From an uncultured Chlamydiae bacterium (GTDB lineage: Bacteria > Chlamydiota > Chlamydiia > Chlamydiales > JAJFMA01), in NCBI GenBank assembly GCA_963713615.1, contig CAVQMM010000001.1:3264001-3328000 (forward strand): a stretch of 64,000 nucleotides of DNA, read 5' to 3'. The notes below the pieces were generated by a model. The model saw nothing but the letters and a program-made list of their open reading frames with translations. It did no database searches and was not told the origin of the DNA. A program made the translations under genes and the position numbers. Below, piece by piece: positions 16,411 through 58,479 of this stretch. The stretch's first letter is position 1. The number at the start of each line of letters is the position of its first letter.

Positions 16411-17161
16411 GAGGTAATTGCAGGAGTCCGATTTCCGAAGTCAATTTCCTGAAAATCGGATGCCGGTGAAGAGAGAGTCATTCCCTTCCCAGGCCCGAAG
16501 GGTCGATATTGCAACAGGCCATGGCATCGCCACATAGGCCTCAACCTAACAGGTCTTTTGAGCTTATATCTCAATGACTTAGGACTTCACAATCGTATCT
16601 CGGCGCGCAGCGCTTTGGAGTGCGGTCGCTTGCGACCGCTTTTCGTTCCTTGGGACGGCAATGCTAAACGGCATTGTATGGATTCGTCGAAGGCTGCATG
16701 TACTAACTATTTTACCCTTAGGGAATTATAGTGATGCCGTTGCACACGACCGTCGCAAGGAACCCAAAGCGGTCGCAAGCGACCGCACTCCAAAGCGCTG
16801 CGCGCCGAGATACGATTGTTAGGCTTAGGTTGAGGCCTATGTGGCATCGCCATGGTATATGCCAAAACGGTTTTAACAGCCTGTAGGGCTGCCATAAAGC
16901 GCATGCATAAATGGTGTTTGTAAACTGGCGTCTTGTAGCAGTCCTTCAGACTGCGAAATCCCTTCCTGGCATATACCATGGCGATGCCATGGCCTGTTGC
17001 AATATCGACCCTTCGGGCCTGGGAGGGGAGAAAAGCCTGTCTTTCCAGACTGGATAGTGCCATACCACTTAAGCTCTCTAGAATCGCCTTCTCACAAAAA
17101 AAGGTAACCTTTTTTCCCGAGAATCGACTCTCAGGGGCTCAAATAATTTTGCAATTACCTC
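16411..17161. mobile_element. Nested inverted-repeat element B, copy 2 (751 bp), flanked by TTTA on both sides
   Basis: GAGGTAATTGCA...TGCAATTACCTC termini; near-identical to copy 1 plus an extra hairpin module at about 16842-16989. Confidence 0.92.
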
Positions 17162-37042: not shown

Positions 37043-38287
37043 ATGGAGATGCAATTCGACACACCCATGCAGAATTACGATGCTCAGGCAGGTGATATTG
37101 GGACTAAGGCGGCATCGCAGCTGGCACAAGGCGCTGATGAAGTGTATGCGCGTTTGCGGGATGACGACAAGAAGGACTCGATAAAAGAAAGCAATGAGAA
37201 AACCAAGCCTGAAGATGTTGCAGGGTTTATCAATCCTGCGGTACCCATGCTAATCCCCCCGCAAAACAATGCCGCTGATATTACTGCCATAGATCAGGGG
37301 AAAAACCAAGGGGTGAGACAAGCCGGAGCTACAGGTTCGGGTGCAGCGAGTGGAACAGCCTATTCTACACAACTTAACGATGCCGTTGAAGGTACAATGC
37401 GCAGCGTCTTGGACAATTGGCAGGCTGCCACAGCAAAATTTGTGGCGAGTTCCAAGGCAAGTAACATCCAGGAAGAGAACAACTATCAAAATAAGGTGTC
37501 TGAGCGATGGGCTCAAGATGTCTATCAGCTAGGCACAGCTCAAGCACCTCATTCAACCGTCGTCTCGGCAATTATGGGGGCGGGTTTAACAGGTGTTATG
37601 GCGGGACACAAAATCGACCCTACAGATCCACAGCACATCAGTTTTTCCTTGAATCAAGATGGAATCCAGGCTGCGACGCCCATGATACCAAGCGACATGC
37701 GTGCTGAATTGGGGTTACTTGGAGCTCTGCTGATGACTCCCGCACAGTATCAGGCGACAGCTTTGACGATTGGAAAAACCAATAAAACAAGTCAACAACC
37801 TGTTGACCAGCAGTTCGCCAGAAACTATGGTGCGCGAGTGGTCAAGATGGTAAATGATCAGGGCTTTAACTCATGGTTAAAGACAATTATTCAAGCCAAA
37901 GCACCGGGTAATGGCCAGCTGAGTCAACAGCAGATGGGGGAATGGACGGCGAATTTTAAATTGGGCATGCTGATGTCGGCCTATGCGATGTCATATAAAG
38001 CAGCCTATGGTGGGGTTACCGGTGCTGAAGTTGCTGGACAGGTTAAAAATCTCGATCTTGCTAAGGCCGGTGGTGATGCTCCATTAATGGATGCCATTCG
38101 CCAGCAACTACAGTCGATGCCACCAGCTCAGCAAACGGCGGCTTTGAGCCGCATCACCAATTGGTTGAATAGACCCGAGACCACCCAGAAGATCGATTCT
38201 TTGATGGATCCTATGAAGGTCTTCCAAGGCATTTCGGGCCCTGGAGATGGTGTTCAGGAAAGAAAAGCTACTGACCAGCCCGTATGA
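37043..38287 (+). CDS. Hypothetical A/Q/G-rich protein, type III secretion substrate-like
   Basis: GGAGG RBS; 414 aa; low-complexity N-terminus and two weakly hydrophobic segments; function is inferred. Confidence 0.75.
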   Translation: MEMQFDTPMQNYDAQAGDIGTKAASQLAQGADEVYARLRDDDKKDSIKESNEKTKPEDVAGFINPAVPMLIPPQNNAADITAIDQGKNQGVRQAGATGSGAASGTAYSTQLNDAVEGTMRSVLDNWQAATAKFVASSKASNIQEENNYQNKVSERWAQDVYQLGTAQAPHSTVVSAIMGAGLTGVMAGHKIDPTDPQHISFSLNQDGIQAATPMIPSDMRAELGLLGALLMTPAQYQATALTIGKTNKTSQQPVDQQFARNYGARVVKMVNDQGFNSWLKTIIQAKAPGNGQLSQQQMGEWTANFKLGMLMSAYAMSYKAAYGGVTGAEVAGQVKNLDLAKAGGDAPLMDAIRQQLQSMPPAQQTAALSRITNWLNRPETTQKIDSLMDPMKVFQGISGPGDGVQERKATDQPV

Positions 38288-39287
38288 GGTAATCTGCCCA
38301 AGACTCTCTGGAGAGCCCCTCGCCGGTCAAGACTATAGGTTGAGAGGCTCTGCGCTTGAGCGCCTGTTGGTAGGTTTCATCATAGTAGTTCAGCACTGCA
38401 TCAATCCAGTCAACCATGCGTCTTTCGGCTAGTGCAGCAAGAGCTTGTTGCGCTCGTTCCCCGCCCAGGCGTCGATGCAGCCTTCGCGTAGCCTCCATGA
38501 GAAGCTGACTATCTAGCTGTCCATATACTTCCAGCAGAGAAGCAATGCGTTCTTCTCTAGGTGGCTGTACGACAATTACTGGTGCTGCAAGCATAGCCTG
38601 AAAGAGGCTTAGCGGCAGGCGTAGTTTACCGATTTGACGACTTTCATCTTCTATCCATACGCGGCGTGAGGGATCAAACTCCCTCCACAAACGGGCGATT
38701 TCGTTCTCAAGGTGTTCGTTGGATGGCTGAGCAGGCAGTCCCAGGCCCCCATAGGTACTTCCACGGTGATTTGCTAAAGCTTCGAGATCCAAGACTTGCT
38801 CTCCACGTAGCCTAAGAGCTTGCAGGATAGCCGTTTTTCCGCTTCCTGTCATGCCGCCCAAAACAACAATAGCGGGACCTGCGGTGATTGCATCCAAGGT
38901 CTTGAGAGCTCTTCTGCGATATTCCTTATAGCCCCCTTGTAGGGTGATGGCCTGCAGGCCTGCAATTCCCAGAAGCCAAGCCACAGCGCCAGAGCGCATG
39001 CCTCCGCGCCAGCAATACACCTTGGCGCAAGCACCTTTGGTAAGCCCTTTGGCGCTTACCACCAAGTCAGCAAATCGTGGACCAGCTAACCGCAGCCCAA
39101 GTTCTACAGCTGCATTACGGCCCACTTGCTTGTACGTAGTGCCTACCTGGGCACGTTCCGCATCGGAAAAAAGAGGAAGACTGTGCGCCCCTGAGATGGG
39201 AGCATGCAAAAACTCGCTAGGACTGCGCACATCCAGGGCTGCTCCAGGGGTGGCTAGAAACGATTCGATGTCCAGAACATCAACCAC
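38268..39287 (-). CDS. selU: tRNA 2-selenouridine(34) synthase
   Basis: DVRSPSEF, rhodanese YCWRGGMRS, GGYK, P-loop GMTGSGKT, DLEALANHRGS and EDESRQIG motifs. Confidence 0.95.
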   Translation of the reverse strand: MVDVLDIESFLATPGAALDVRSPSEFLHAPISGAHSLPLFSDAERAQVGTTYKQVGRNAAVELGLRLAGPRFADLVVSAKGLTKGACAKVYCWRGGMRSGAVAWLLGIAGLQAITLQGGYKEYRRRALKTLDAITAGPAIVVLGGMTGSGKTAILQALRLRGEQVLDLEALANHRGSTYGGLGLPAQPSNEHLENEIARLWREFDPSRRVWIEDESRQIGKLRLPLSLFQAMLAAPVIVVQPPREERIASLLEVYGQLDSQLLMEATRRLHRRLGGERAQQALAALAERRMVDWIDAVLNYYDETYQQALKRRASQPIVLTGEGLSRESWADYLIRAGQ

Positions 39288-41525: not shown

Positions 41526-43403
41526 CGGAAGTTCACCCCTAATTTCCCCACTACTTTGATCGTATTGTGATGAATATAAATGCTTTGCATCACTATTTTT
41601 CCGAAAAAATGTAGTCACTAAAATAATTATTCAAATATCATCTAAAATATATTGTAGATATATTTATTATGCGTATAATGTAGTCCAGTTATATGATGGA
41701 AACTGTATGTACATTGCAAAATCAACGTCCAAGTCTAAGTCTGGAAAGGTTTACGAGTCTATTTTGCTTCGTGAATCATATAGAGAGGGCACAAAGGTTA
41801 AAAACCGCACACTGGCTAATCTTTCAGGGTGTTCTAAGAGTGATATTGAGGCTATTAGGCTAGGTCTGAAACATAAGGACAATCCTACAATCTTGTCCAA
41901 GGACAGTTTTAGCATTGTTCAGGGCAGATCAGTTGGAGGAGTGTTCGTTCTAAAGCAATTGGCAGACAGTCTTGGGATCACAAAAGCCCTAGGTGATAGT
42001 TTCCACGCTAAACTTATCCTTTGGCTTGTCTTCGCAAGGATTCTTGAGCAAGGCTCTCGCCTGTCGGCGGCAAGACTGGTCCTAATCTATGATATTGCCT
42101 CCATAATCAACCTCAACCGAGGTTTTGATGAAAATGACTTTTATCAAAGCCTGCATTGGGTAGCCAAAAATCAAAGTTCCATTGAGAATTCGCTTTTCAG
42201 GCTTAGGCGTTATTCTGGGCAATTTTACTGGTACGATGTAACAAGCTCATACTTTGAGGGCACGCAAAATGCCTTGGCTGCCTATGGACACAACCGCGAC
42301 AAGAAGAAAAGAAAGAAGCAGGTCGTTATAGGGCTGTTAAGCATCAATAATGGAATGCCAGTCTCCGTCGAGGCCTTTGCAGGCAATACCCAGGACACTC
42401 TGACTTTTCAAAATCAGTTAGACAAAATTAAAGCCAGATTTGGCTGCAAGAACGTTGTCCTAGTTGGTGATAGAGGAATGATTCGGAACAAGCAGAAGCT
42501 ATTGCTAAAGGAATACGGGTTTGGATATGTCACAGCCTTGACTCTTCCTGAGATGAAATCGCTAATAGGCGCAGAGATTCTTTGTCTGGATACATTCACG
42601 AAAGATCTTCAATCGATTTGTCTTGAAGGCAAGAGATACATCTATCGGCGCAATCCTGGACGTGCTTTAGAAACCCAATCACAAAGAGAAGAACGCCTAT
42701 CTACCGCTCAAAGGCGCGTGGATCAAGAAAACAAAAAACTTGAGTCTAAGCCTACAATGTCAGCGGTGTTGGCAAAGAATCGAATACGACAATATCTAAA
42801 AAAACTATGCATTGCAGAGTGGGTCAGTGTTTCCGTCGAAAAAAGGCAATTACGTTTAGAGATCGACCAGGAGCGGCTAAAAGAAAAATCTAAGTTTGAC
42901 GGTTGTTACGTATGGACAACGGAATTAGGTAAGGAAGAAGCTTCTGACCTAGAAATTTTCGAACGATACAAAGACCTAAAATACGTTGAGGATGATTTCA
43001 GAACCTTCAAGAGCAATTTTTTGGAAATCAGGCCGATTTATGTAAGAACAGTAGAGAGCACCAAGGGGCACATATTTATCACTATGCTGGCTCATATGAT
43101 TGTAAGAGAGCTGCGTTCAAGGTTAGCTGAAGTAAATATGACTGCAGAAGAGGCCCTGCGAGTGTTAGGCCTTATATGTCAAAATTCAATAAAGTGCTCA
43201 GATGCGGTGACCATTGAAATGATCCCTGCCCCCTCCAAGGAGGCCACTAACATTTTGAGCGCTCTACAAATTACCATGCCAAAGCAAATCCAGGTGGCCA
43301 CAAGTAATGTAGTCACTAAACACAGGACAAGAAAAGGCCTCTAAAAGTCGAAAAATCAACACTTTAGGTAGGTGTTTTTTTCAAAAACAGGGGTGAACTT
43401 CCG
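41526..43403 (+). mobile_element. IS1634-family insertion sequence (1878 bp)
   Basis: 15-bp perfect TIR CGGAAGTTCACCCCT; 6-bp target duplication CTCCAA at 41520-41525 and 43404-43409. Confidence 0.93.
41707..43344 (+). CDS. IS1634-family DDE transposase
   Basis: LLRESYREG.KVKNRTLANLS, YDVTSSYFEG, GHNRD, VGDRGM, DG.YVW.T, YKDL..VE.DFR.FK and IRPIY motifs. Confidence 0.93.
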   Translation: MYIAKSTSKSKSGKVYESILLRESYREGTKVKNRTLANLSGCSKSDIEAIRLGLKHKDNPTILSKDSFSIVQGRSVGGVFVLKQLADSLGITKALGDSFHAKLILWLVFARILEQGSRLSAARLVLIYDIASIINLNRGFDENDFYQSLHWVAKNQSSIENSLFRLRRYSGQFYWYDVTSSYFEGTQNALAAYGHNRDKKKRKKQVVIGLLSINNGMPVSVEAFAGNTQDTLTFQNQLDKIKARFGCKNVVLVGDRGMIRNKQKLLLKEYGFGYVTALTLPEMKSLIGAEILCLDTFTKDLQSICLEGKRYIYRRNPGRALETQSQREERLSTAQRRVDQENKKLESKPTMSAVLAKNRIRQYLKKLCIAEWVSVSVEKRQLRLEIDQERLKEKSKFDGCYVWTTELGKEEASDLEIFERYKDLKYVEDDFRTFKSNFLEIRPIYVRTVESTKGHIFITMLAHMIVRELRSRLAEVNMTAEEALRVLGLICQNSIKCSDAVTIEMIPAPSKEATNILSALQITMPKQIQVATSNVVTKHRTRKGL

Positions 43404-43642
43404 CTCCAAAGCGCTGCGCGCCGAGATACGATTGTTAGGCTTAGGTTGAGGCCTATGGGGCGTCGCCCTGGTATATTCCAGGAAGGGATTTCGCAGTCTG
43501 AAAGACTGCCATAAGGCACTTGTATAAATAGCGTGTGAATACAGACGTCTTGTGGCAGTCTTTCAGACTGCGAAATCCCCCTTGGCATATACCAGGGCGA
43601 TGCCCTGGCCTGTTGCAACATCGACCCTTCTACCATAGGATT

Positions 43643-43885
43643 TTGCAAACGATTATCGACGGTAATAGGAAAAGACAAAAAACATTTCTCTAAGGTATCA
43701 TTTTGGCCGACGAAGGTGTGGCCGTGTGCCCTTAGCGAATGTTTGTTCGCCTGGCCCGATATGCCGCCTTCGTCGTTTGCATCATCCAATAATTCCGTTC
43801 GGGATGGTGCCAATCTTCTGATTGTGGCTCTGTAAGTAGAAGTGGAATTTGGGTGAAATTTAACGCTCACAAACACTTAACAGGG
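43643..43885 (+). ncRNA. Predicted bridge RNA in the IS110 left end (boundaries approximate)
   Basis: Two stem/internal-loop/hairpin modules (43708-43775 and 43791-43849) containing segments that match the target and donor flanks. Confidence 0.8.
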
Positions 43886-43893
43886 CATTTATC

Positions 43894-45090
43894 ATGCAAA
43901 ATCAGTCCGAACTTCGTATTTGTCTAGATATCGGTAGCGTTCGACACTATGTAGCCATAGGCTTGTCCACAGGAGAACGCATCGATGGATTTTATCTAAA
44001 CCACACTTCTGAAGACATTGAGCAGTTTTTTGAGAAAATTGAGAAGCTTAGAATTTCCTATAACATGCCTGTTGTCATGGCTATGGAGGGGTTTAATGGC
44101 TATGCTAGACCCATCGATAGATATGCTCTTGATCACGGATATTCTTTGTATAGTGTCAACAACATGAAATTGGCTAGATTTAAGGAAGTTTTTCCTGGTC
44201 CAGCCAAAACAGATCCAATTGACGCTTGGGCTATTTTTAGCTTGTTTCAAGTTCAAGAGACCTTACCGTTGGCAAAAAATATTCTGCAGAAAGTAGAGCC
44301 TCCACCGGTATGCAACGAGCAACTTAAACATATTTCAAGGCGTCGTAGAGAGTTGGTAAAAGAAAAGACAAGAATCATAAATCGACTTCAAGGGGATCTA
44401 CAGGCTGTTTGCCCCGGTCTACTGTCTATTACAAAAAATCCAGCAAATCTTTGGTTTCTACGATTTCTTGCTTCGAAGGAAGACATGACCATGTTGCTTC
44501 GAATGCAAAAAAGAAGCCTGTTGCAAATCAAGGGCGTTGGAGAGGTTTATGCAGAGGAAATTCAGAAATGGCAAAAGACGGCTAAGTTCTCTTCAAAGGT
44601 TGAGTGGATAGGAAAATTAATAGTACGAGATGTCAGAAGGCTACTCGAGATGCTAGATGAAATAGCGCAGTTGGAGGTATTGATAGAGGGTTTGATCCCA
44701 CAATCCAAGATAGCATCTCGGATTGAATCTATTCCTGGATATGGTTCCATTTGTGCCGCAGAACTCGCTGGAGAGATTGGTAGTATCGATCGGTTTAAGT
44801 CGGAGGCTAGTCTAGCGCTCTACTTGGGAATAGGAATTCTGAACAAGAGTTCTGGCCAATATGAGGGGTCTCGATCGCCTCGAAATATTAACTGGAGGGG
44901 AAAGGGAGCTATGATGACCGGAGCTGCTCGACATATACAACTATGTGATGAGGCTGCACAGTACTACAAGAAGAAGAGAGCAGAGGGAAAAAAACATAAC
45001 CAAGCAGTACGAGCATTTGCCCGTCATATGATAAGAGTAATATGGTCGATACTCATACATGACAGGGATTACCGTCAGAAGGAAGACTGA
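43894..45090 (+). CDS. IS110-family DEDD recombinase
   Basis: CLDIG, AMEG and KTDPIDA RuvC-like DEDD residues; C-terminal IPGYG...AGEIGSIDRF..LALYLG..SSG and KKHNQAVRAFARH motifs. Confidence 0.96.
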   Translation: MQNQSELRICLDIGSVRHYVAIGLSTGERIDGFYLNHTSEDIEQFFEKIEKLRISYNMPVVMAMEGFNGYARPIDRYALDHGYSLYSVNNMKLARFKEVFPGPAKTDPIDAWAIFSLFQVQETLPLAKNILQKVEPPPVCNEQLKHISRRRRELVKEKTRIINRLQGDLQAVCPGLLSITKNPANLWFLRFLASKEDMTMLLRMQKRSLLQIKGVGEVYAEEIQKWQKTAKFSSKVEWIGKLIVRDVRRLLEMLDEIAQLEVLIEGLIPQSKIASRIESIPGYGSICAAELAGEIGSIDRFKSEASLALYLGIGILNKSSGQYEGSRSPRNINWRGKGAMMTGAARHIQLCDEAAQYYKKKRAEGKKHNQAVRAFARHMIRVIWSILIHDRDYRQKED

Positions 45091-45169
45091 GTTAGTTTAG
45101 CAAACGGGCTTTGTTCTGTTTGGCCTGAATGAACAAGGTCAGCAAATTCGGCGATGTTAGCTGAGCAGA

Positions 45170-45283
45170 AAAGGAGCACGGCTACTCTGCTTCGGCAACC
45201 CCATAGGAGTTGTATACAACCTTCCTAAGTAAATTCACCGTGTCCCTTCGCAGTTGAAAGGAGCACGGCTACTCTACTTCGGC
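45170..45283 (+). repeat. 27-bp direct repeat AAAGGAGCACGGCTACTCTRCTTCGGC x2 in the IS110 right end
   Basis: Copies at 45170-45196 and 45257-45283, one mismatch, 60-bp spacer. Confidence 0.9.
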
Positions 45284-45373
45284 TCTATAAATTTAGCAAA
45301 ATTAGAAAATAATTAAAAGTTTCAAAACCGAAGGAATTGGCATCGAAAAATCGCCTGAAAGCTACGAAAAATC

Positions 45374-45396
45374 TTGAAAAATTCTAGCGGGATGTC
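45374..45396 (+). promoter_or_regulatory. Outward-facing -35 box (TTGAAA) that combines with -10 TACCAT (43631-43636) in the circular IS form
   Basis: Exactly 17 bp from TTGAAA to TACCAT across the reconstructed junction. Confidence 0.82.
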
Positions 45397-45703
45397 GGGC
45401 CTGGGAAGTGATATAAGCCTGTGTCTCCAGAACCCGATAGTGTCACGCCATTTGAGCTCTCCAGAATCGCCGTCTCGCAAAAAAAGTAACCTTTTTTCTA
45501 AGAATCGATCCTTAAAGACTCAAATAATTTTGCATTTACCCCCTTAGGTCTTTTGGTCCATCCAAGAGCGACCGCTCCCTGCATTTCTCAACAACCCAAG
45601 CGAACAGCAATCTTGGATTATTTTGTTAAATCCTCTAACATTGATTTTTTTAAAATGACAATAATTAGACATCATTATATAATTTAATTAAAAGGGGGTT
45701 ACT

Positions 45704-45910
45704 ATGGAAGAATACAATGTCCGTGTGCCCGGGCTACCTCCTGGTCAGGAGTTCCAGAAAGTTAAAGTGCGAACAAATAAAGCTACTGCGGCAGGTTCTC
45801 CCGCCAAAAAAGACAAAAAACCTCGCAAAGTGGAAAACGATGAGAATGTTGCTAAAAATATCACCAATATAGCTAGTGCGGCATTTGACCCTAATCACTT
45901 CAAGAAGTAA
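45704..45910 (+). CDS. Small basic hypothetical protein
   Basis: 68 aa with a GGGGG RBS-like motif and an AT-rich upstream region. Confidence 0.55.
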   Translation: MEEYNVRVPGLPPGQEFQKVKVRTNKATAAGSPAKKDKKPRKVENDENVAKNITNIASAAFDPNHFKK

Positions 45911-45919
45911 GTCCGGTGC

Positions 45920-46195
45920 CTACTCTTCATAAATATCTTTGCGATGACGAATAGCCACGATGATCACTGTATTTTCATTAATTCGATAGACGATCCTGTA
46001 GTCTCCCACACGCAAACGCCGATGCCCTTTTAGGCTATAACGTAAGGGCTTTCCGTAGCTAACGGGATCAACCATTAGCCGATCGGTGATCGCGCTGATG
46101 ATTCTCTTTCTGGATGAAGCGTCTAGATCTGGAATGTGTTCTTTGACAACAACAGACAGATATTCAATGACATACTTGTTCCTATTTCCAGGCAT
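45920..46195 (-). CDS. RelE/ParE family type II toxin
   Basis: GKPLRYSLKGHRRLRVGDYRIVY and IRHRKDIY motifs; ATG overlaps the antitoxin 3' end. Confidence 0.92.
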   Translation of the reverse strand: MPGNRNKYVIEYLSVVVKEHIPDLDASSRKRIISAITDRLMVDPVSYGKPLRYSLKGHRRLRVGDYRIVYRINENTVIIVAIRHRKDIYEE

Positions 46196-46604: not shown

Positions 46605-49600
46605 ATGGCTATGCGCCTTAAGAGACTAAAAATTTATGGATTTAAGTCATTTGCTGACCACAGCAACATCGAATTCATCGATGGCATCACCGCTGTTGTT
46701 GGTCCCAATGGCTGTGGTAAATCCAATATTGCCGATGCGTTTCGATGGGTTTTGGGTGAGCAATCGGCCAAATCCTTGCGTGGGCGCAGCATGCCTGATG
46801 TTATCTTTGCCGGTACTACCACACGAAAGCCATTGAATTATGCCGAGGTTAGCCTCACGCTGACTGAGGTGAATGGTCAGCTACCAATAGACTACGACGA
46901 GGTGACGGTAACACGGCGTTTACACCGGAGCGGTGATTCGGAATATTTCATCAATGGGCATGTGGTGAGGTATCGCGAAATTCAGAGTCTCTTCATGGAC
47001 TCCGGGATAGGAAGAAGCGCTTTTTCCATCTTTGAACAAGGCAAAATTGACCAGGTCATCAACCTCTCTCCTTTGGAAAGGCGTTATCTTTTTGAAGAAG
47101 CTGCTGGCATCTTGCGCTTTTTGCAACGCAAACGTGAAGCTCTCAAGAAGCTGGAAGAAACTGAACAAAATATGGTGCGCCTTGAAGATGTTCAGCGTGA
47201 GGTAGTGCGGCAGGTCGAAGTTCTCGGCCGGCAAGCTGAACAGGCGCGATACTATAAAGTCAAAAAATGTGAGCTTGAAAGTCTCCAAACAGCCCTGCTA
47301 TGCGCTCGTTGGAAGGCATTGGATCTTTCCATGCGCCAACTTTCGGAAAAGGAACGCTCTAAAACAGAGAGCGCTACTGTCACTCAAGAGCTTTTGGCGG
47401 AGAAACAGAGAGAATCGCGACAGGTTAAAGAAGCCCTCACGTTGTTGGAGCACCGTTTTGGTTTGCAACGGGAAGAGATTGTCAAAGTACAGACTACCAT
47501 CGAACATAACGTTGAGAGTCGTCGTAAGAACCAGGAGCGTCTTGAAGAGGCTATTGCGTCTCAAGAACTGAAGCAGAAGGAACTGGTGGATTTGCTTGCC
47601 TCTCGGGCAAATCGCAAGCAAGAGATGGCAGACTATGAGGGACGGTTGGAGGAGTTGCGAGACCGTCTTGCTTCTGCTACAGAGGCTTTAGAGAGTCGTC
47701 GAAGGCAATATGCTGCCAATGAAGAGAAGATGGCAGCCCTTTGGCAACAGCAGCAGCAGGCGCAGCAAGAACAGCTCAAAAAAGTTCAGGCGGAAGGCAA
47801 GGTTGAGGGGGATCTCAACCAGTCCCTTGCCCTCTTAGATAGTTATAACCAACGTTTAGCACATGCTGAAGAAGAGAAAGCTGGCTTAAAAGGTAGGCTA
47901 GAGGGAATTGAAGATTTAGTTGCTCAGAGGGCCGACTCAAAAGAAGAAATCTCGGCACGCTTAGAGCAAACCAGTGAAAAGCTGGAATTGCTGACTGAAG
48001 GGTTGGATCATATTCAACAGCGTATTGTAGCCAAAGAACAAGAGTTATTGGGCATAAACCGAAAACTCACCGAGCTCCAAGCACGTCAGAAGATTCTGCA
48101 GCAATTGCGCGATGCTGGTGAAGGTCTAGGGAATGGTACAAAACGTCTTTTGCAGGAATCATTCAGAGTTGGTAGCGAGCTGCACGGAAAGCTTAAACCC
48201 CTCTATGAGCAGTTATGCCCCAGTTCCGGTTCCGAAGGCCTTGTCGCTGCCGCTCTATCGAATTACAGCGATACATTGACCGTTGACTCTCTTGCCGACC
48301 TCAATCGCGTTTTAGCCTTTGCCTTTAAGGAGGGTCTACAGGGATTTTCATTGCTATGCCATGAGCTTGCATCGTCCAGGGAATCTCCTGGGCCCACTCA
48401 TATTTGTCTTGCACAGTTGTGCGGAGGTCCTATTGGCGCCTTGCTACTAGGCAGTGTGATTGTTGCAGATGACCTTCAGCAAGCATTGGAGTTGGCGAGA
48501 TCGCATCCTGAGTTAACTATCTGCATGCAGGATGGTTTGATGATTGATGCTCAGCGAGTGATTTCGCGTACCGATGGTTCTTCCGGTAGTGTGTTTATTC
48601 GTGAGGCGGAATTACGAGCTTTTGAGATTCAAGAATCAGCACTCAATAAGTCCATAGGTGATGTTTCTCGTACGCGTGATGAACTGATTGAAAAACGCCT
48701 TATCATGGAACAGGAGCAGGCCGAGCAAAAGGCGCAGCTCCGTAGGGCTGAGGTAGACCTTATGGAGGTGACATACGCTTGGCGGCAGAGTGTAAGTGAT
48801 CGCGATAAGGCCACAGGGGAGCTGGAGCGTTTGGACCAAACAGCCACCTCACTAAATGTAACCATTAAACAATTAGTGGCTACTGTGGAACAGCTCCAGG
48901 CACACTTTACACAGGCGCGTGAAGGAGCGGCCGGTATCGAAGAGGCTCTTTCGCATATTGTTGACGAATTAGAACAGCTTAAAACGCGTTTGCGCGCCGA
49001 TAAGCAGCTTCTTCAAGCCGAAGAAACAGCTCATGAACGCCTCACGGATGAAGATCGTAGACTATCTCATACCTTAAGTCTCTTGGCCGTTAAAGATCAC
49101 GAATCTCAAATCCAGGAAAAGCGTTTTGAATCCGATATTAGGCTGGCTCGCGAGGTTCAGGAGCGCCTGCAGAACGAGGAACAGGATCATGGCTTTAATT
49201 TGGAATCTGTCCATACTCGCTTAGAACGTCTGCTTGATGCACATTCCCAAACGGAGCAAGAGGTAACGGGAAATAAACAGCGCCTTCAGGATTCGGAAGA
49301 GGACATACAGGCCGAAACAAGTCGACTGCGCCGTTGTGAAAAGGAAATTCATGAACTGGGCATTCAGAAGACTCACCAACAAACCTTGTTGGAAGCATTG
49401 AAAATCGAGCTTTCTGATAATCATCGTATTGATGTTGATCTTCAACGTGACAGTCTACCCCCTTTAGAGATGCCGCTCGAGCAGGCTGAAAAGACCGTAA
49501 GAGCTCTTAAAGAAGAGGTCGATAAGTCGGCCAACGTCAATATGACTTCTATCGAAGAGTTTGAGTCGCAGCAACAACGTGCCCAGAGTTTAGGGCAGCA

Positions 49601-50141
49601 GCTGGAGGATTTGACTTCTTCGCGGCAAGAGCTACAGCAGATCATTGGGGATTTAGATGACGAAAGCCGCCGTTTGTTCACTGCAACCTTTGCGACAATA
49701 CGCACAAAATTTCAGGAAATCTTTCAGATTCTCTTTCGCGGTGGAGAAGCCGATTTGTGTCTTACCGACGAGGGAGATGTCTTAGCAGCGGGCATTGAGA
49801 TTGTCGCGAAGCCTCCCGGTAAGCAGATGCGATCGATTCAGTTGATGTCTGGTGGCGAGAAATGCCTGACGGCATTAGCTCTTTTGTTTGCCCTTTTTGA
49901 AGTTAAGCCTGCGCCCTTTTGTCTTTTGGACGAAATCGATGCTCCGCTGGATGACAGCAACGTTGACCGCTTTTCAGCTATGCTTAAGCACTTTGTCGAC
50001 CGTTGTCAGTTTATTGTGATCACGCATAACAAGGCTACCATGGCTGTAGCCGATGTTCTTGTGGGCGTATCGATGCAGGAGAAAGGTGTCTCTAAGGTGC
50101 TTACCTTCGACTTCGCGAAGCATGCTGTCGGCGTCTCCTAG
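46605..50141 (+). CDS. smc: Chromosome segregation protein SMC
   Basis: GFKSF, GPNGCGKSN, long coiled coils with hinge, MSGGEK, LLDEIDAPLD and FIVITH motifs. Confidence 0.97.
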   Translation: MAMRLKRLKIYGFKSFADHSNIEFIDGITAVVGPNGCGKSNIADAFRWVLGEQSAKSLRGRSMPDVIFAGTTTRKPLNYAEVSLTLTEVNGQLPIDYDEVTVTRRLHRSGDSEYFINGHVVRYREIQSLFMDSGIGRSAFSIFEQGKIDQVINLSPLERRYLFEEAAGILRFLQRKREALKKLEETEQNMVRLEDVQREVVRQVEVLGRQAEQARYYKVKKCELESLQTALLCARWKALDLSMRQLSEKERSKTESATVTQELLAEKQRESRQVKEALTLLEHRFGLQREEIVKVQTTIEHNVESRRKNQERLEEAIASQELKQKELVDLLASRANRKQEMADYEGRLEELRDRLASATEALESRRRQYAANEEKMAALWQQQQQAQQEQLKKVQAEGKVEGDLNQSLALLDSYNQRLAHAEEEKAGLKGRLEGIEDLVAQRADSKEEISARLEQTSEKLELLTEGLDHIQQRIVAKEQELLGINRKLTELQARQKILQQLRDAGEGLGNGTKRLLQESFRVGSELHGKLKPLYEQLCPSSGSEGLVAAALSNYSDTLTVDSLADLNRVLAFAFKEGLQGFSLLCHELASSRESPGPTHICLAQLCGGPIGALLLGSVIVADDLQQALELARSHPELTICMQDGLMIDAQRVISRTDGSSGSVFIREAELRAFEIQESALNKSIGDVSRTRDELIEKRLIMEQEQAEQKAQLRRAEVDLMEVTYAWRQSVSDRDKATGELERLDQTATSLNVTIKQLVATVEQLQAHFTQAREGAAGIEEALSHIVDELEQLKTRLRADKQLLQAEETAHERLTDEDRRLSHTLSLLAVKDHESQIQEKRFESDIRLAREVQERLQNEEQDHGFNLESVHTRLERLLDAHSQTEQEVTGNKQRLQDSEEDIQAETSRLRRCEKEIHELGIQKTHQQTLLEALKIELSDNHRIDVDLQRDSLPPLEMPLEQAEKTVRALKEEVDKSANVNMTSIEEFESQQQRAQSLGQQLEDLTSSRQELQQIIGDLDDESRRLFTATFATIRTKFQEIFQILFRGGEADLCLTDEGDVLAAGIEIVAKPPGKQMRSIQLMSGGEKCLTALALLFALFEVKPAPFCLLDEIDAPLDDSNVDRFSAMLKHFVDRCQFIVITHNKATMAVADVLVGVSMQEKGVSKVLTFDFAKHAVGVS

Positions 50142-54720: not shown

Positions 54721-57700
54721 ATGACTAGGCTGCCTAGATTGTTAAAATCCTATCTTCAAGCCGGCAAGCGCCTTATTAAGGCGGGAGCCGTCAGGGATGT
54801 CGAATTTTCTGGTTCGACGTACCAGGTTTTGGTCCAAAGCGCTAAGGACGAAGAGGGGGTATGGGCTTTTCTACAGCTTGATGAAGCGGGGACCATTCGT
54901 GATTGTTTTTGCGGATGTGACCAGAGCGATGAAGAGGGTGGTTGTAGTCATTTGGCTGCAGCCTATCTAAAGATTTTTAATGATCATGAAACTCCATTGC
55001 ACATACGATTTGAGCATTCCCTTTGGCACAAGCTATGTAGTCATTATGCCGAAAAGGTCGGCTACGATGCCGATTTGTTAAAAACTGACGCGGGAAGTGA
55101 ATATCAATTCCATTCCGTCTCTGGAAAGCGGCTCTTTTCCGTTAAAGGTCTGGGCGAGGAAGGGAAACAGCAGCTCTATCACCTCATGGAAGTGCGGGTA
55201 CAGGAGACTGAGGAAACTTCTTTAAAATTTTCCAACCTACCGCAAAATGAAATTCAGCTTTGGCGTGAAGGGCGTCCTAGTTTGCGTCTATTATACCATC
55301 TCTCGTTCTGGAACGATTTGGCAAAATGGATGATGGTGATGCAGGATCAGGATCCGGCCTATCAAATCACCTTTGGCTATTCTTCTAAAGGGATACCCAA
55401 TGCCCTTTATGTGACTTTTTCGGTTCTGAAGGCGGAGTTTTATGTTCCGGAAGCTCTGCTTCCGTCAATTATTTCATCTTTGGCAGATGCGCGGTCTACA
55501 ATACCCGTTCGTGACTTTGCCAAAGAGGCCATTTCAAAAATCACTTATGATGAAGAGCAAGGATGCTTGAAGATTCATCGTTCAGGGACCCGAGGCGATA
55601 AGCCCGACCTTCCCGCCCTGGATGGTGTCGTATGGCGTTTTGGAGAATGGCGTTATACCAGTGCAGTAGGTTTTTTTCATACTGAGGAAGGTAGCCTTTT
55701 AGCTAATCAGACCGTACGCGGTGCAGAAATCTCAGAGGTTTTGCGCGATCATTATCTGTTTATTAAAGGCGAGCTTGAGGGGGTAGCCATTCACGAGGAG
55801 CCGGTAGATGTTTCCTACCACCTTTCCTTCGATGCTCAATGGAACCTACATGTGAATTGCTATTTGTTCGAGCCACGAGATCTGCAAAGGCCCTTGTCGC
55901 GAGCTTTCAGAGAGTGGGCTTATTTGGAAGGTCTCGGTTTTTATCGCTTGCGGAATATGCGCAGCGAGCAGATTGAGGAAGTCATTCCTAGCAAAGAGGT
56001 GTCGGATTTTGTCACTCAAAACCGCGTTTGGCTTAGTTCACAAGATGGCTTTAGCCCCCATCTAGCCAACGTCGAGGCAGAGCTGACCTATCAGATTGAC
56101 AGCGATAAAAATTTGAGCTTTTCCAGCTACACATCACCAGATGAGAGTAGTGAGGGGCAGAAGGATTTTGGGCGCTGGGTGTACATTGCCGGCCAAGGTT
56201 TCTTCTCTAAGGTAGGCTCTAATATCGGCTTACCTGTTCGGCCAGGGGTGGCTGTACATGCCGAGGCGATCAGTGTCTTTATTCACATGAACCGTGAGGA
56301 GTTACAGCTGGTTCCTGGCTTCTTTAGCCGTATTTGCCCTGTCATTCGATCGGAGTTGAGTATCGAACTTGATGATAACAACGACATTCGTGTGACGCCC
56401 AAATATGAATTGCTTCCTCAGTACCGCCAGCGGGCCTTAAATTTCTTTGGTGATTTTGTCTATACCCCCAATGAGGGCTTTTATAGTCTACCTGAGGAGA
56501 GTCGTCTTCCCGAGGCCTACCGTCAACCTGTTCAGGTGGCTCCTGAGAATATGGCCCTGTTTCTCAACTATGACTTGGAGGCTCTTAAGCCTTATATTTT
56601 TTATCTGGATCCCTGCTTAACACGCCCTTCGGTAATGACACTGACCGTAGATGATATTGAAGAAGGTAAGCAGGGTAAGGGGTGGTATGACTTGCAGCTG
56701 TCCTATGTTACCGAACGAGGGTCTATTCCTGTCTCCCAGTTATGGCAGGCAATCGCCGAAAAGGAACGCTTTGTCTTTTCGGCGGCGGGCTTGATTGATT
56801 TGCAGGACGCGCGGTTTGCATGGGTACATAGCTTGAGAAAGGCTCGTTTCGACTTAGCTCGGAATGGAGTAACCTTGTCAACCATGGAGCTAATTCGTCT
56901 TAATGTATTCGACGAAATACACCCTCCTACGGCTGAGGATGCTAAATCTGAGACTGCTGCTGAAATCCTCCGGGGATTGACGACTTTTGAAGATCCTAGT
57001 CCCCCGAACCTTGAAGGGCTGCGCAGCAACTTACGCCCCTACCAGCTAAAAGGGATTCAGTGGCTCTGGTTTCTCTATCACCATGGCCTTTCGGGGTTGC
57101 TGTGTGATGACATGGGGTTAGGAAAGACTCACCAATCCATGGCGTTAATGGTTTCCATATTAAATGACTTCAAGGAACGTGGTGTTTCGCGGCTGCCGAA
57201 AATTTTGATTGTGTGCCCAACGTCGGTCATCTATCACTGGCAGGAAAAACTACAGGAGTATCTTGAGGGATTTCGCATTGTGACTTTCTATGGCCTAGAA
57301 CGTAGCCTGGATGACTTTGATGAATCCTGTCACGTTCTGCTTACTTCTTACGGTGTTTGTCGGCGAGAGGTAAAACGGCTTAAGGAAATGAAGTTTGATT
57401 TGGCCGTGCTAGATGAAGTGCAGGCCGCTAAGAGTCAGGCTAGTCGTCTCCATCATGCCCTTTTGCAGATTCAGGCATCTATGCGCGTGGGTTTGACGGG
57501 TACACCGATTGAGAATCACCTCATGGAACTGAAAGCGCTATTCGATGTTGTCTTACCCACTTATATGCCTTCTGAGCATGACTACAGAGAGTTTTTTATT
57601 AAGCCAATCGAAAAGGAGCAAAATCTTCAACGTCGACAGCTCTTATCTCGGCTGATTAAACCCTTTGTGCTGCGACGAAAGAAGGGAGATGTTCTTACCG

Positions 57701-58479
57701 ACCTTCCAGAAAAGACTGAAGAAGTATTTCACTGTGAGCTATCCGAGGAACAACGACACCTTTATCGCGAAGTTCTGGAACAAACACGCAGCCAGGTCAT
57801 GGATGACCTTAAGGATCCCAATAAGGTCGTGCCTTATGTGCATATCTTCGCTATCCTGACGCAACTCAAACGCGTGTGTAACCATCCTGCTGTATATCTG
57901 AAGCAGCCTGAAAAATTTCGTAAACATGAATCAGGCAAATGGGATCTGTTTGTAGAACTGCTTAGTGAGGCCCGTGCTAGTGGTCAAAAGGTGGTTGTCT
58001 TCACTCAGTATCTCGCTATGCTAGATATCTTTGAGGACTATCTCAAGAGCGAGGGAATCGCTTTTGCTTCCATTCGCGGTGCCACCATCAACAGAGGTGA
58101 GCAGCTGCGTCTCTTTAACCAAGATCCCAGCTGCGAGGTCTTTTTGGGCTCGCTGCAGGCTGTGGGCCTTGGTGTTGACCTCACAGCTGCCTCAGTAGTC
58201 ATTCACTATGACCGGTGGTGGAATGCTGCTCGCGAAAACCAAGCGACGGACCGCGTTCACCGTATCGGACAAACGCGTGGTGTGCAGGTATTCAAGTTAG
58301 TCACTAAAGGGACTTTTGAGGAGCGCATTGATGCTCTTATTAGTGCCAAGGGCAGGCTCATGGAAGAGGTTGTTGGTGTGGATGATCAGGATGTCATTAA
58401 GCGCCTTGACCGCACTGAGCTTATTCAGCTCTTACAATACGTCGATGATGCATCTACGAGTCATCCCACAGACAAGTAA
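54721..58479 (+). CDS. SWIM zinc finger plus SNF2/SWI2 family helicase
   Basis: CFCGC...CSH, LRPYQ, LCDDMGLGKT, LDEVQ, LTGTPIEN and WWNAARENQATDRVHRIGQ motifs. Confidence 0.95.
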   Translation: MTRLPRLLKSYLQAGKRLIKAGAVRDVEFSGSTYQVLVQSAKDEEGVWAFLQLDEAGTIRDCFCGCDQSDEEGGCSHLAAAYLKIFNDHETPLHIRFEHSLWHKLCSHYAEKVGYDADLLKTDAGSEYQFHSVSGKRLFSVKGLGEEGKQQLYHLMEVRVQETEETSLKFSNLPQNEIQLWREGRPSLRLLYHLSFWNDLAKWMMVMQDQDPAYQITFGYSSKGIPNALYVTFSVLKAEFYVPEALLPSIISSLADARSTIPVRDFAKEAISKITYDEEQGCLKIHRSGTRGDKPDLPALDGVVWRFGEWRYTSAVGFFHTEEGSLLANQTVRGAEISEVLRDHYLFIKGELEGVAIHEEPVDVSYHLSFDAQWNLHVNCYLFEPRDLQRPLSRAFREWAYLEGLGFYRLRNMRSEQIEEVIPSKEVSDFVTQNRVWLSSQDGFSPHLANVEAELTYQIDSDKNLSFSSYTSPDESSEGQKDFGRWVYIAGQGFFSKVGSNIGLPVRPGVAVHAEAISVFIHMNREELQLVPGFFSRICPVIRSELSIELDDNNDIRVTPKYELLPQYRQRALNFFGDFVYTPNEGFYSLPEESRLPEAYRQPVQVAPENMALFLNYDLEALKPYIFYLDPCLTRPSVMTLTVDDIEEGKQGKGWYDLQLSYVTERGSIPVSQLWQAIAEKERFVFSAAGLIDLQDARFAWVHSLRKARFDLARNGVTLSTMELIRLNVFDEIHPPTAEDAKSETAAEILRGLTTFEDPSPPNLEGLRSNLRPYQLKGIQWLWFLYHHGLSGLLCDDMGLGKTHQSMALMVSILNDFKERGVSRLPKILIVCPTSVIYHWQEKLQEYLEGFRIVTFYGLERSLDDFDESCHVLLTSYGVCRREVKRLKEMKFDLAVLDEVQAAKSQASRLHHALLQIQASMRVGLTGTPIENHLMELKALFDVVLPTYMPSEHDYREFFIKPIEKEQNLQRRQLLSRLIKPFVLRRKKGDVLTDLPEKTEEVFHCELSEEQRHLYREVLEQTRSQVMDDLKDPNKVVPYVHIFAILTQLKRVCNHPAVYLKQPEKFRKHESGKWDLFVELLSEARASGQKVVVFTQYLAMLDIFEDYLKSEGIAFASIRGATINRGEQLRLFNQDPSCEVFLGSLQAVGLGVDLTAASVVIHYDRWWNAARENQATDRVHRIGQTRGVQVFKLVTKGTFEERIDALISAKGRLMEEVVGVDDQDVIKRLDRTELIQLLQYVDDASTSHPTDK

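Follow-up and report, generated by a model that had tools for sequence, protein, structure and literature searches.

An IS110-family insertion sequence in a chlamydial genome with a left-end two-loop RNA predicted to act as a bridge RNA

In the sections of Durrant et al. (2024; PMC11208160) drawn on here, the left-end RNAs of IS110 elements have a variable first loop and a conserved second loop, and the consensus RNA of the IS621 type has a 5' stem-loop. In IS621, the left target and donor guides pair with the bottom strand (and so have top-strand sense), the right ones with the top strand, and the core is included in the pairing of all four guides. The same sections report a covarying subterminal inverted repeat flanking the donor for the IS110 group, and for the IS1111 group a right-end guide RNA, subterminal inverted repeats of 7 to 17 bp, and a right end longer than the left. 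Corresponding parts of Hiraizumi et al. (2024; PMC11208158) give D11, E60, D102, D105, and S241 as the catalytic residues of IS621 and describe how, once strands have been exchanged, the two nucleotides (nt) that follow each right guide (here termed handshake bases) pair with the final bases in the left half of the other DNA. Here, we analyzed an IS110-family insertion sequence within a 64,000-nt stretch of DNA (the window) from an uncultured Chlamydiae bacterium (GenBank assembly GCA_963713615.1, contig CAVQMM010000001.1, positions 3,264,001 to 3,328,000 of the forward strand). Its left end encodes a conserved two-loop RNA that, judged from sequence, is very probably a bridge RNA. The element is one more natural ortholog of a described RNA-guided recombinase system and leaves the known mechanism unchanged; the RNA-guided nature of the family is already contained in its NCBIfam name (NF033542). 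An earlier interpretation based on the letters of the window (the sequence-only reading) had proposed a new programmable RNA-guided ortholog. The ortholog stands, while the implied novelty falls away with a system already described, and "programmable" is a property that we infer.

Element ends, two-loop RNA, and guide segments

The element occupies window positions 43631 to 45396 (1,766 bp, with the right-hand core TC counted as part of it) and, like all of its features described below, lies on the forward strand. It consists of a 263-bp left end, an open reading frame (ORF) of 398 amino acids (aa) at 43894 to 45090 that represents the recombinase gene, and a 306-bp right end. The left junction reads GACCCT-TC/TACCAT (slash, element boundary), with TC at 43629 to 43630 and the element starting at 43631; the right junction reads CGGGATG-TC/GGGCCT, with TC at 45395 to 45396. 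Nine copies were found in the genome (3.97 Mb on 3 contigs), of which seven were full length with ∼100% identity and two were interrupted by other insertions. All nine had identical ends (left, ...CCCT-TC/TACCAT; right, CGGGATG-TC/GGGC...), and in all nine TC was the sole sequence common to both junctions; intact sites carry a single TC, and there was no longer duplication. A TC core at both junctions and the lack of terminal inverted repeats (TIRs), as noted in the sequence-only reading, were thus seen at every copy, and a subterminal inverted repeat can now be added.

To assess conservation of the left end, we collected 80 loci from many phyla that encode relatives of the recombinase (46 to 60% identity); 61 distinct upstream regions were aligned, and the RNA alignment comprised 55 distinct copies of the region homologous to 43700 to 43872. 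RNAalifold analysis of these 55 left ends yielded two modules with 33 pairs, 17 of which showed compensatory changes. Module 1, the putative target-binding loop (43708 to 43775), is closed by CGACGAAGGT (43708 to 43717) paired with GCCTTCGTCG (43766 to 43775) and contains an inner hairpin (43735 to 43740 with 43745 to 43750); 7 of its 11 stem pairs had compensatory changes. In module 2, the putative donor-binding loop (43782 to 43856), AATTCC (43791 to 43796) pairs with GGAATT (43844 to 43849) around an inner hairpin formed by 43809 to 43815 and 43820 to 43828, with compensatory changes in 8 of the 11 outer-stem pairs. Across the relatives, loop 1 was variable and loop 2 nearly invariant. In the consensus structure, 95.6% of the cells were paired, compared to 34.6 to 54.2% when partners were slid by 1 to 3 columns, and 130 double changes were counted in stem pairs versus 31.8 in shuffles (none of 500 shuffles reached 130). 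The element's own sequence behaved similarly, since 43704 to 43866 folded alone into the two modules at −58.2 kcal/mol (z = −3.55; none of 200 shuffles was as stable). The minimum free energy structure of the whole 263-nt left end was significant as well, but did not display the modules cleanly. The proposal that the left end folds into two modules was therefore confirmed by the subfold and the comparative fold, but not by the fold of the entire left end.

Each loop contains a pair of segments that match the junctions. In module 1, the candidate left target guide GCCCUU (43728 to 43733) has the same sense as the target ACCCTT and would pair by a G.T wobble, CCCT, and the first core base; at a variant insertion site (TGCCCT-TC), the match extends to UGCCCUU (7 of 7). 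The candidate right target guide GGCCCGA (43753 to 43759; 43753 to 43761 including the handshake bases UA) is the reverse complement of TC plus GGGCC. In module 2, the candidate left donor guide CGGGAUG (43800 to 43806) is identical to the right-end terminus at 45388 to 45394, which together with the core forms the left donor (45388 to 45396) in all nine copies, and the right donor guide GUAGA (43836 to 43840; 43836 to 43842 including the handshake bases AG) is the reverse complement of TC plus TAC. When the 251-nt left end was compared on either strand with the four 14-nt junction halves, GGCCCGA and CGGGATG were the sole matching 7-mers, each oriented as expected, and 1 of 20,000 shuffled left ends contained both. 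In order and strand polarity, the guides agree with the definitions of Durrant et al. for IS110 bridge RNAs such as that of IS621, as had been claimed, and all coordinates, stems, and guide strings listed in the sequence-only reading were found again in the sequence.

That reading had also proposed a check, namely, covariation of the guides with their flanks in homologs, and the outcome was positive. Junctions of the relatives typically read ...GGGG-TC/TACCAT and CGGGATGT-TC/AG..., and the target loop of the element departs from the family consensus (GGGGUC ... CUGA) exactly where its target departs. Over 54 distinct pairs, the reverse-complemented right target guide matched its own right flank over a mean of 5.74 nt, whereas permuted pairs gave 3.77 ± 0.16 (0 of 10,000 permutations reached the observed value); this result, obtained with all 55 regions that have a right end, was unchanged when the element of the window was left out. 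For the left target guide and its own left flank, the mean was 6.15 versus 5.46 ± 0.12 in permutations (41 pairs; again 0 of 10,000). The table of both junctions omits 18 of the 61 regions (15 with an unaligned left-end start and 3 with the right end off the contig). Clear single cases of covariation were GCGGTC (locus L022), GGTACC (L067), and TCGGAGT (L044). At all 41 loci, the right donor guide followed the first bases of the left end, with AUAGA at TATCAT (7 of 7) and GUAGA at TACCAT or TACCTT (34 of 34). The left donor guide was GGAAUG in three relatives, two of which had GGAATG at the right end.

The bases behind the right guides fit the described handshake as well. AG behind GUAGA is complementary to the CT that ends the left target, its A facing a target T; in the relatives, the first of these nucleotides was C in 42 of 42 cases, facing a target G in 40 of those. 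Behind GGCCCGA, UA faces the donor TG (U.G, then A-T), and the relatives have A facing T. A subfamily of three loci (L067, L068, and L070) had CC at the core of the left junction, the left target guide, and the right donor guide, together with TC at the right junction and the right target guide, such that copies of the core differ within the element.

Recombinase, target repeat, and host

The sequence-only reading had called the ORF product an IS110 recombinase, and domains, family profile, and catalytic residues all bear this out. The ORF contains DEDD_Tnp_IS110 (PF01548; 70.9 bits) and Transposase_20 (PF02371; 49.7 bits), both over their cut-offs, and scored 173.7 bits against NF033542, "IS110 family RNA-guided transposase" (cut-off, 140). 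Residues D12, E65, D107, D110, and S320 align with D11, E60, D102, D105, and S241 of IS621 and are invariant or at least 90% conserved in the family alignment. A phmmer search of the PDB with the single protein gave no match at 0.001; the family profile retrieved ISCro4 (E = 3.1e−13) and IS621 (E = 5.8e−13). An AlphaFold (AF2) model had a mean pLDDT of 85.2 and a pTM of 0.75, and its Foldseek ranks 1 to 10 were chains of the ISCro4 and IS621 synaptic complexes (E = 2.4e−11 to 1.1e−9; 16 to 17% identity). TM scores were 0.64 to 0.65 when normalized to the target and only 0.52 to 0.54 when normalized to the query, because the protein of the element is longer: the linker between its two domains exceeds that of IS621 by ∼77 residues and contains a weak HhH-like match (196 to 232). 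In a plasmid collection searched by tblastn, the best identity was 27.4%, with no closer named element among the 12 matches listed; 11 of these were annotated as IS110-family transposase, and the remaining one was unannotated under the match. The genome has 12 PF01548 matches, 9 of which are the copies of the element. Its two interrupted copies are located at 1751077 to 1755709 and 3547221 to 3552257 (genome contig G000:C1) and contain inserts of ∼2.9 and ∼3.3 kb, where the flanking pieces overlap by 9 bp and 8 bp, which look like target-site duplications of other elements.

The target is a host repeat. Eight of the nine copies are inserted in ...CGACCCT-TC-GGGCCTG... and one in ...TGCCCT-TC-GGGCTTAG..., and the two flanks in the window (left half of the target with core TC, 43617 to 43630; right half, GGGCCTGG..., 45397 to 45411), when joined, align as an intact repeat. 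The intact 14-mer GACCCTTCGGGCCT was present six times in the window (7819, 8198, 16491, 17007, 32214, and 41223) compared to 0.45 expected (none of 100 shuffles reached six) and 258 times in the genome; a 25-mer around the target site had 261 genome matches, and its reversed control had none. These counts substantiate the earlier claims that the element splits a repeat which is intact at six other sites of the window and that this host repeat is the target. The repeat is modular and of high copy number, and is found as inverted pairs and in tandem arrays. Such arrays (G000:C1, 476677 to 478756, 1173378 to 1175457, and 2273597 to 2277381) have a period of ∼473 bp with two inverted copies of the target site per unit. 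As a single strand, the intact site can form the hairpin CCCTTC/GAAGGG with the loop GGGCCTGG, in which the 5' arm ends with the core TC and the loop corresponds to the right target; the right half in the window comprises this loop and the 3' arm. The hairpin described in the sequence-only reading is thus present, but the split falls at the border of stem and loop and not within the loop, and its stability did not exceed that of shuffles (z = −0.85; 39 of 200).

The repeat unit hosts further structures. Within it, just left of the target, lies a near-perfect palindrome of ∼150 bp (43458 to 43605; arms 43485 to 43525 and 43539 to 43579, 88% complementary), a module that recurs at 17007 and at hundreds of genomic sites and gave sub-threshold microRNA-like matches only in Rfam, as expected for a long hairpin. 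An IS1634-family DDE element (41526 to 43403; 545-aa transposase, 20-bp inverted repeats, 7 to 8 genome copies) lies 227 bp upstream of the IS110 insertion, likewise nested within this high-copy unit. We considered that the target might be a terminal repeat of this neighbor and rejected the idea, as the IS1634-family element comes with 20-bp inverted repeats of its own and sits inside a unit of the high-copy repeat.

A chlamydial host, suggested previously, is supported by the relatives of SerRS: among the best 120, the three named proteins all belonged to Chlamydiales or Chlamydiia, and the best identity was 81%. A search of 200 other genomes from the phylum, three of them from the genus, detected no copy of the transposase at E = 1e−30, and the 25-mer target was not found in these three genus genomes, which are drafts of 40 to 290 contigs in which repeats may be unassembled. 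Near-identical DNA was present in peat and soil metagenomes. In a keyword search of the literature, we found no report of a bridge RNA in the chlamydial phylum. Elsewhere in the window, 54721 to 58479 encodes a 1,252-aa SNF2-type helicase with sub-threshold matches to models of the SCO1167 family, a pilus-regulating Snf2, and Zorya ZorD.

Promoters, expression, and alternative explanations

All 38 distinct right ends had a −35-like hexamer (TTGAAA in 31 of them) exactly 17 nt from the terminus. The left ends of the relatives start with TACCAT or TATCAT, a −10-like half, such that on a circle the hexamer would stand 17 nt before it. In our element, TTGAAA occupies 45374 to 45379 and TACCAT, which also starts the right donor, 43631 to 43636; its right end has lost one T at the terminus and gained one A in the spacer, keeping the 17-nt spacing. 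No −35-like box was visible by eye in the integrated left flank. We therefore predict, from sequence, a promoter split across the circle junction that would be complete only on joined ends. The hexamer overlaps the right arm (45374 to 45386) of a subterminal inverted repeat, whose left arm is found at 43636 to 43648; 11 of 13 positions match (reached by 23 of 2,000 shuffles), and the innermost 3 bp, next to the donor, covary in the relatives (CCA/TGG, CTA/TAG, CGA/TCG, and CAA/TTG).

Taken together with the described systems, these features suggest the following course. The element would excise as a circle, and joining of its right and left ends would place the TTGAAA box 17 nt upstream of TACCAT, thereby switching on the RNA and probably the recombinase too. 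In loop 2, CGGGAUG and GUAGA would pair with the joined ends. After top-strand exchange, the nucleotides behind the right guides (UA and AG) would "shake hands" with the other DNA, and a tetramer of the serine recombinase would go on to finish insertion at TC.

Contigs from RNA libraries matched 43741 to 44001 and 43749 to 44014 without mismatches in two metatranscriptomes of two studies, and two further metatranscriptomes covered other parts of the element (in total, four runs of four studies). The contigs covered the element and single-copy genes at 37108 to 38860; none were found on the IS1634-family element or on SMC (46605 to 50000), where lack of cover counts as no evidence. A 414-aa ORF without NCBIfam match (37043 to 38287) had the best cover in the contig sets of two peat metatranscriptomes (depths of 4.7 to 11.6, no mismatches).

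Several observations weigh against a bridge RNA of the known kind. An Rfam search of 43000 to 46000 (E up to 10) gave eight matches, all far under their gathering scores and none of them a bridge RNA, and a stable 5' stem-loop was lacking in the 65-nt leader (−4.4 kcal/mol, z = +1.10; 180 of 200 shuffles folded as well). In both left guides, the second core base has no pairing partner (A follows GCCCUU at the position of the core C, and GU follows CGGGAUG at the core TC), and the left-target pairing is offset by one base relative to most relatives. As the donor loop is nearly invariant in the family, donor covariation rests on few events; handshake covariation is a single event, seen in this element, and is suggestive at most, and in one relative (L083) the handshake base of the target loop does not follow a changed donor base at the right end. 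The RNA-library contigs are a weak sign of expression, since they show neither ends nor strand and DNA carry-over is possible. No circle junction was seen in contigs of two DNA and four RNA runs, which is uninformative because contigs drop rare forms.

One alternative concerns the origin of the RNA and would modify the mechanism without contradicting it. A genuine bridge RNA might be transcribed mainly from an internal promoter just 5' of the first module (AAGACA-18-TATCAT, 43672 to 43701), begin at the base of the target-binding module, lack a 5' stem-loop, and arise from both integrated copies and circles. A promoter scan lists this site at 9 of 12 matches, the leader (43640 to 43707) is unstructured, and in 51 of 56 relatives a TAnnnT motif is located no more than 22 nt 5' of the base of the module (27 at 8 to 9 nt), preceded in 25 of these 51 by a −35-like hexamer matching at least four of six positions at 16 to 18 nt (ATGACA in nine). 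However, promoter-like sites in the left-end region were no more numerous than in shuffles (4 versus 3.1 ± 2.0), the conserved TGAC(G/A) motif could belong to small leader hairpins in the relatives, and the junction promoter is conserved more strictly (38 of 38 at exactly 17 nt). The RNA contigs begin inside module 1 and say nothing about starts. We consider transcription mainly from this site possible but doubtful. If it did occur, integrated copies would stay armed against ∼260 sites and could drive deletions or inversions between them.

The other two alternatives deny that the left-end RNA guides integration. The protein alone could choose its target, with the left end serving as a 5' leader or regulatory region and the matches arising by chance or shared ancestry. 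The short matches of the left target and right donor guides (5 to 6 nt) would be compatible with this, as would a donor loop almost as invariant as a protein-binding site and the fact that the bridge RNA is predicted from sequence. Yet the joint presence of both 7-mers in 1 of 20,000 shuffles, the position of the guides in loops of a fold supported by covariation, target-loop segments that change with their flanks over 54 and 41 distinct pairs (0 of 10,000 permutations), and a fold and catalytic residues shared with RNA-guided relatives solved with bridge RNAs make this explanation very improbable. Alternatively, the guide RNA might reside in the long right end, as in IS1111, and the left-end structure might be something else. 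A right end of 306 bp that exceeds the 263-bp left end and a 13-bp subterminal inverted repeat are indeed IS1111-like traits in the description given in PMC11208160, and RNA-library contigs also cover 45047 to 45273. The 283-nt right-end spacer (45091 to 45373), which includes two 27-nt direct repeats (45170 to 45196 and 45257 to 45283), nevertheless contained no guide-oriented, core-adjacent match to either target or donor and was restricted to copies of this element, and typical relatives keep the left-end two-loop RNA with an estimated ∼36 nt from stop codon to right end. We thus regard a right-end guide as extremely improbable. The spacer might represent an additional small RNA or a region of termination; contigs of two studies stop at 45271 and 45273, a weak hint at best that a 3' end lies there.

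Beyond the prediction of a left-end bridge RNA, we tentatively propose that the element represents a deeply diverged branch of bridge recombinases, a view that we hold with low confidence. Such a branch would be naturally reprogrammed (GGGG-TC-AG in the relatives, CCCT-TC-GGGCC here) and would combine a TC core with pairing of the full core by the right guides only, two-base handshakes in both loops, and maybe a bridge RNA without 5' stem-loop from a second, internal promoter.

Comparison with known systems

The locus adds a cleanly delimited ortholog to the bridge-recombinase family: it is present in nine copies, its ends are defined, its guides can be read and its handshake bases identified, and it is far from the solved enzymes. 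Its ∼50 relatives form a natural reprogramming series in which the scaffold is constant while target loops and targets differ, and by targeting a ∼260-copy repeat, an RNA-guided element could plausibly drive rearrangement of the host genome.

With the IS1111 group (IS4321, IS5075, and IS1111), as described in PMC11208160, the element shares the DEDD recombinase, subterminal inverted repeats, a longer right end, and specific repeated targets. Elements of that group are predicted to encode their guide RNA in the right end; here, by contrast, the two-loop RNA with the guides lies in the left end, no guide-like match was found in the right end, and typical relatives have very short right ends. Assignment to the IS110 group is consistent with the domains and serine, the fold, the absence of TIRs, the left-end RNA, the polarity and covariation of the guides, and, as read from sequence, the junction promoter. 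ISPpu10 of Pseudomonas putida, according to the portion of the preprint considered here (bioRxiv 10.64898/2026.03.19.712850), resembles our element in that all insertions are in copies of one conserved intergenic sequence capable of forming stem-loops. For ISPpu10, the target stem-loop adds specificity by experiment, whereas the 6-bp site hairpin and a GC-rich hairpin 5' of the site are predicted here, and neither was more stable than shuffles. The ISCro4 bridge recombinase (PDB 9t56), whose PDB title describes a synaptic complex that comprises the donor and target loops together with both DNAs, was the best fold and profile match to our recombinase (E = 2.4e−11 and E = 3.1e−13); identity is 16%, and this comparison covers the protein only.

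IS621 of Escherichia coli (PDB 8wt6 and 8wt9) is the described system to which most features can be compared. The recombinases share 16 to 17% identity, the protein has 398 aa here versus a 328-residue chain, and the core is TC instead of CT. The natural right target guide spans 7 nt compared to 4 nt in wild-type IS621 as far as described in the sources cited here, and the right end is 306 bp long. The unpaired second core base in the left guides and the absent stable 5' stem-loop represent small, testable departures from the IS621 rules. Common to both systems, on the basis of the parts of PMC11208160 and PMC11208158 used here, are a DEDD RuvC-like domain and a serine Tnp domain with five catalytic residues; a left-end RNA with the variable target loop first and the conserved donor loop second; left guides in top-strand sense and right guides as reverse complements; a 2-nt core with handshake nucleotides behind both right guides; a promoter split over the circle junction; and a short subterminal inverted repeat flanking the donor. 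Both also have a high-copy host repeat as their target, and the earlier statement that IS621 likewise targets repetitive extragenic palindromic elements (REPs) agrees with Durrant et al. (PMC11208160).

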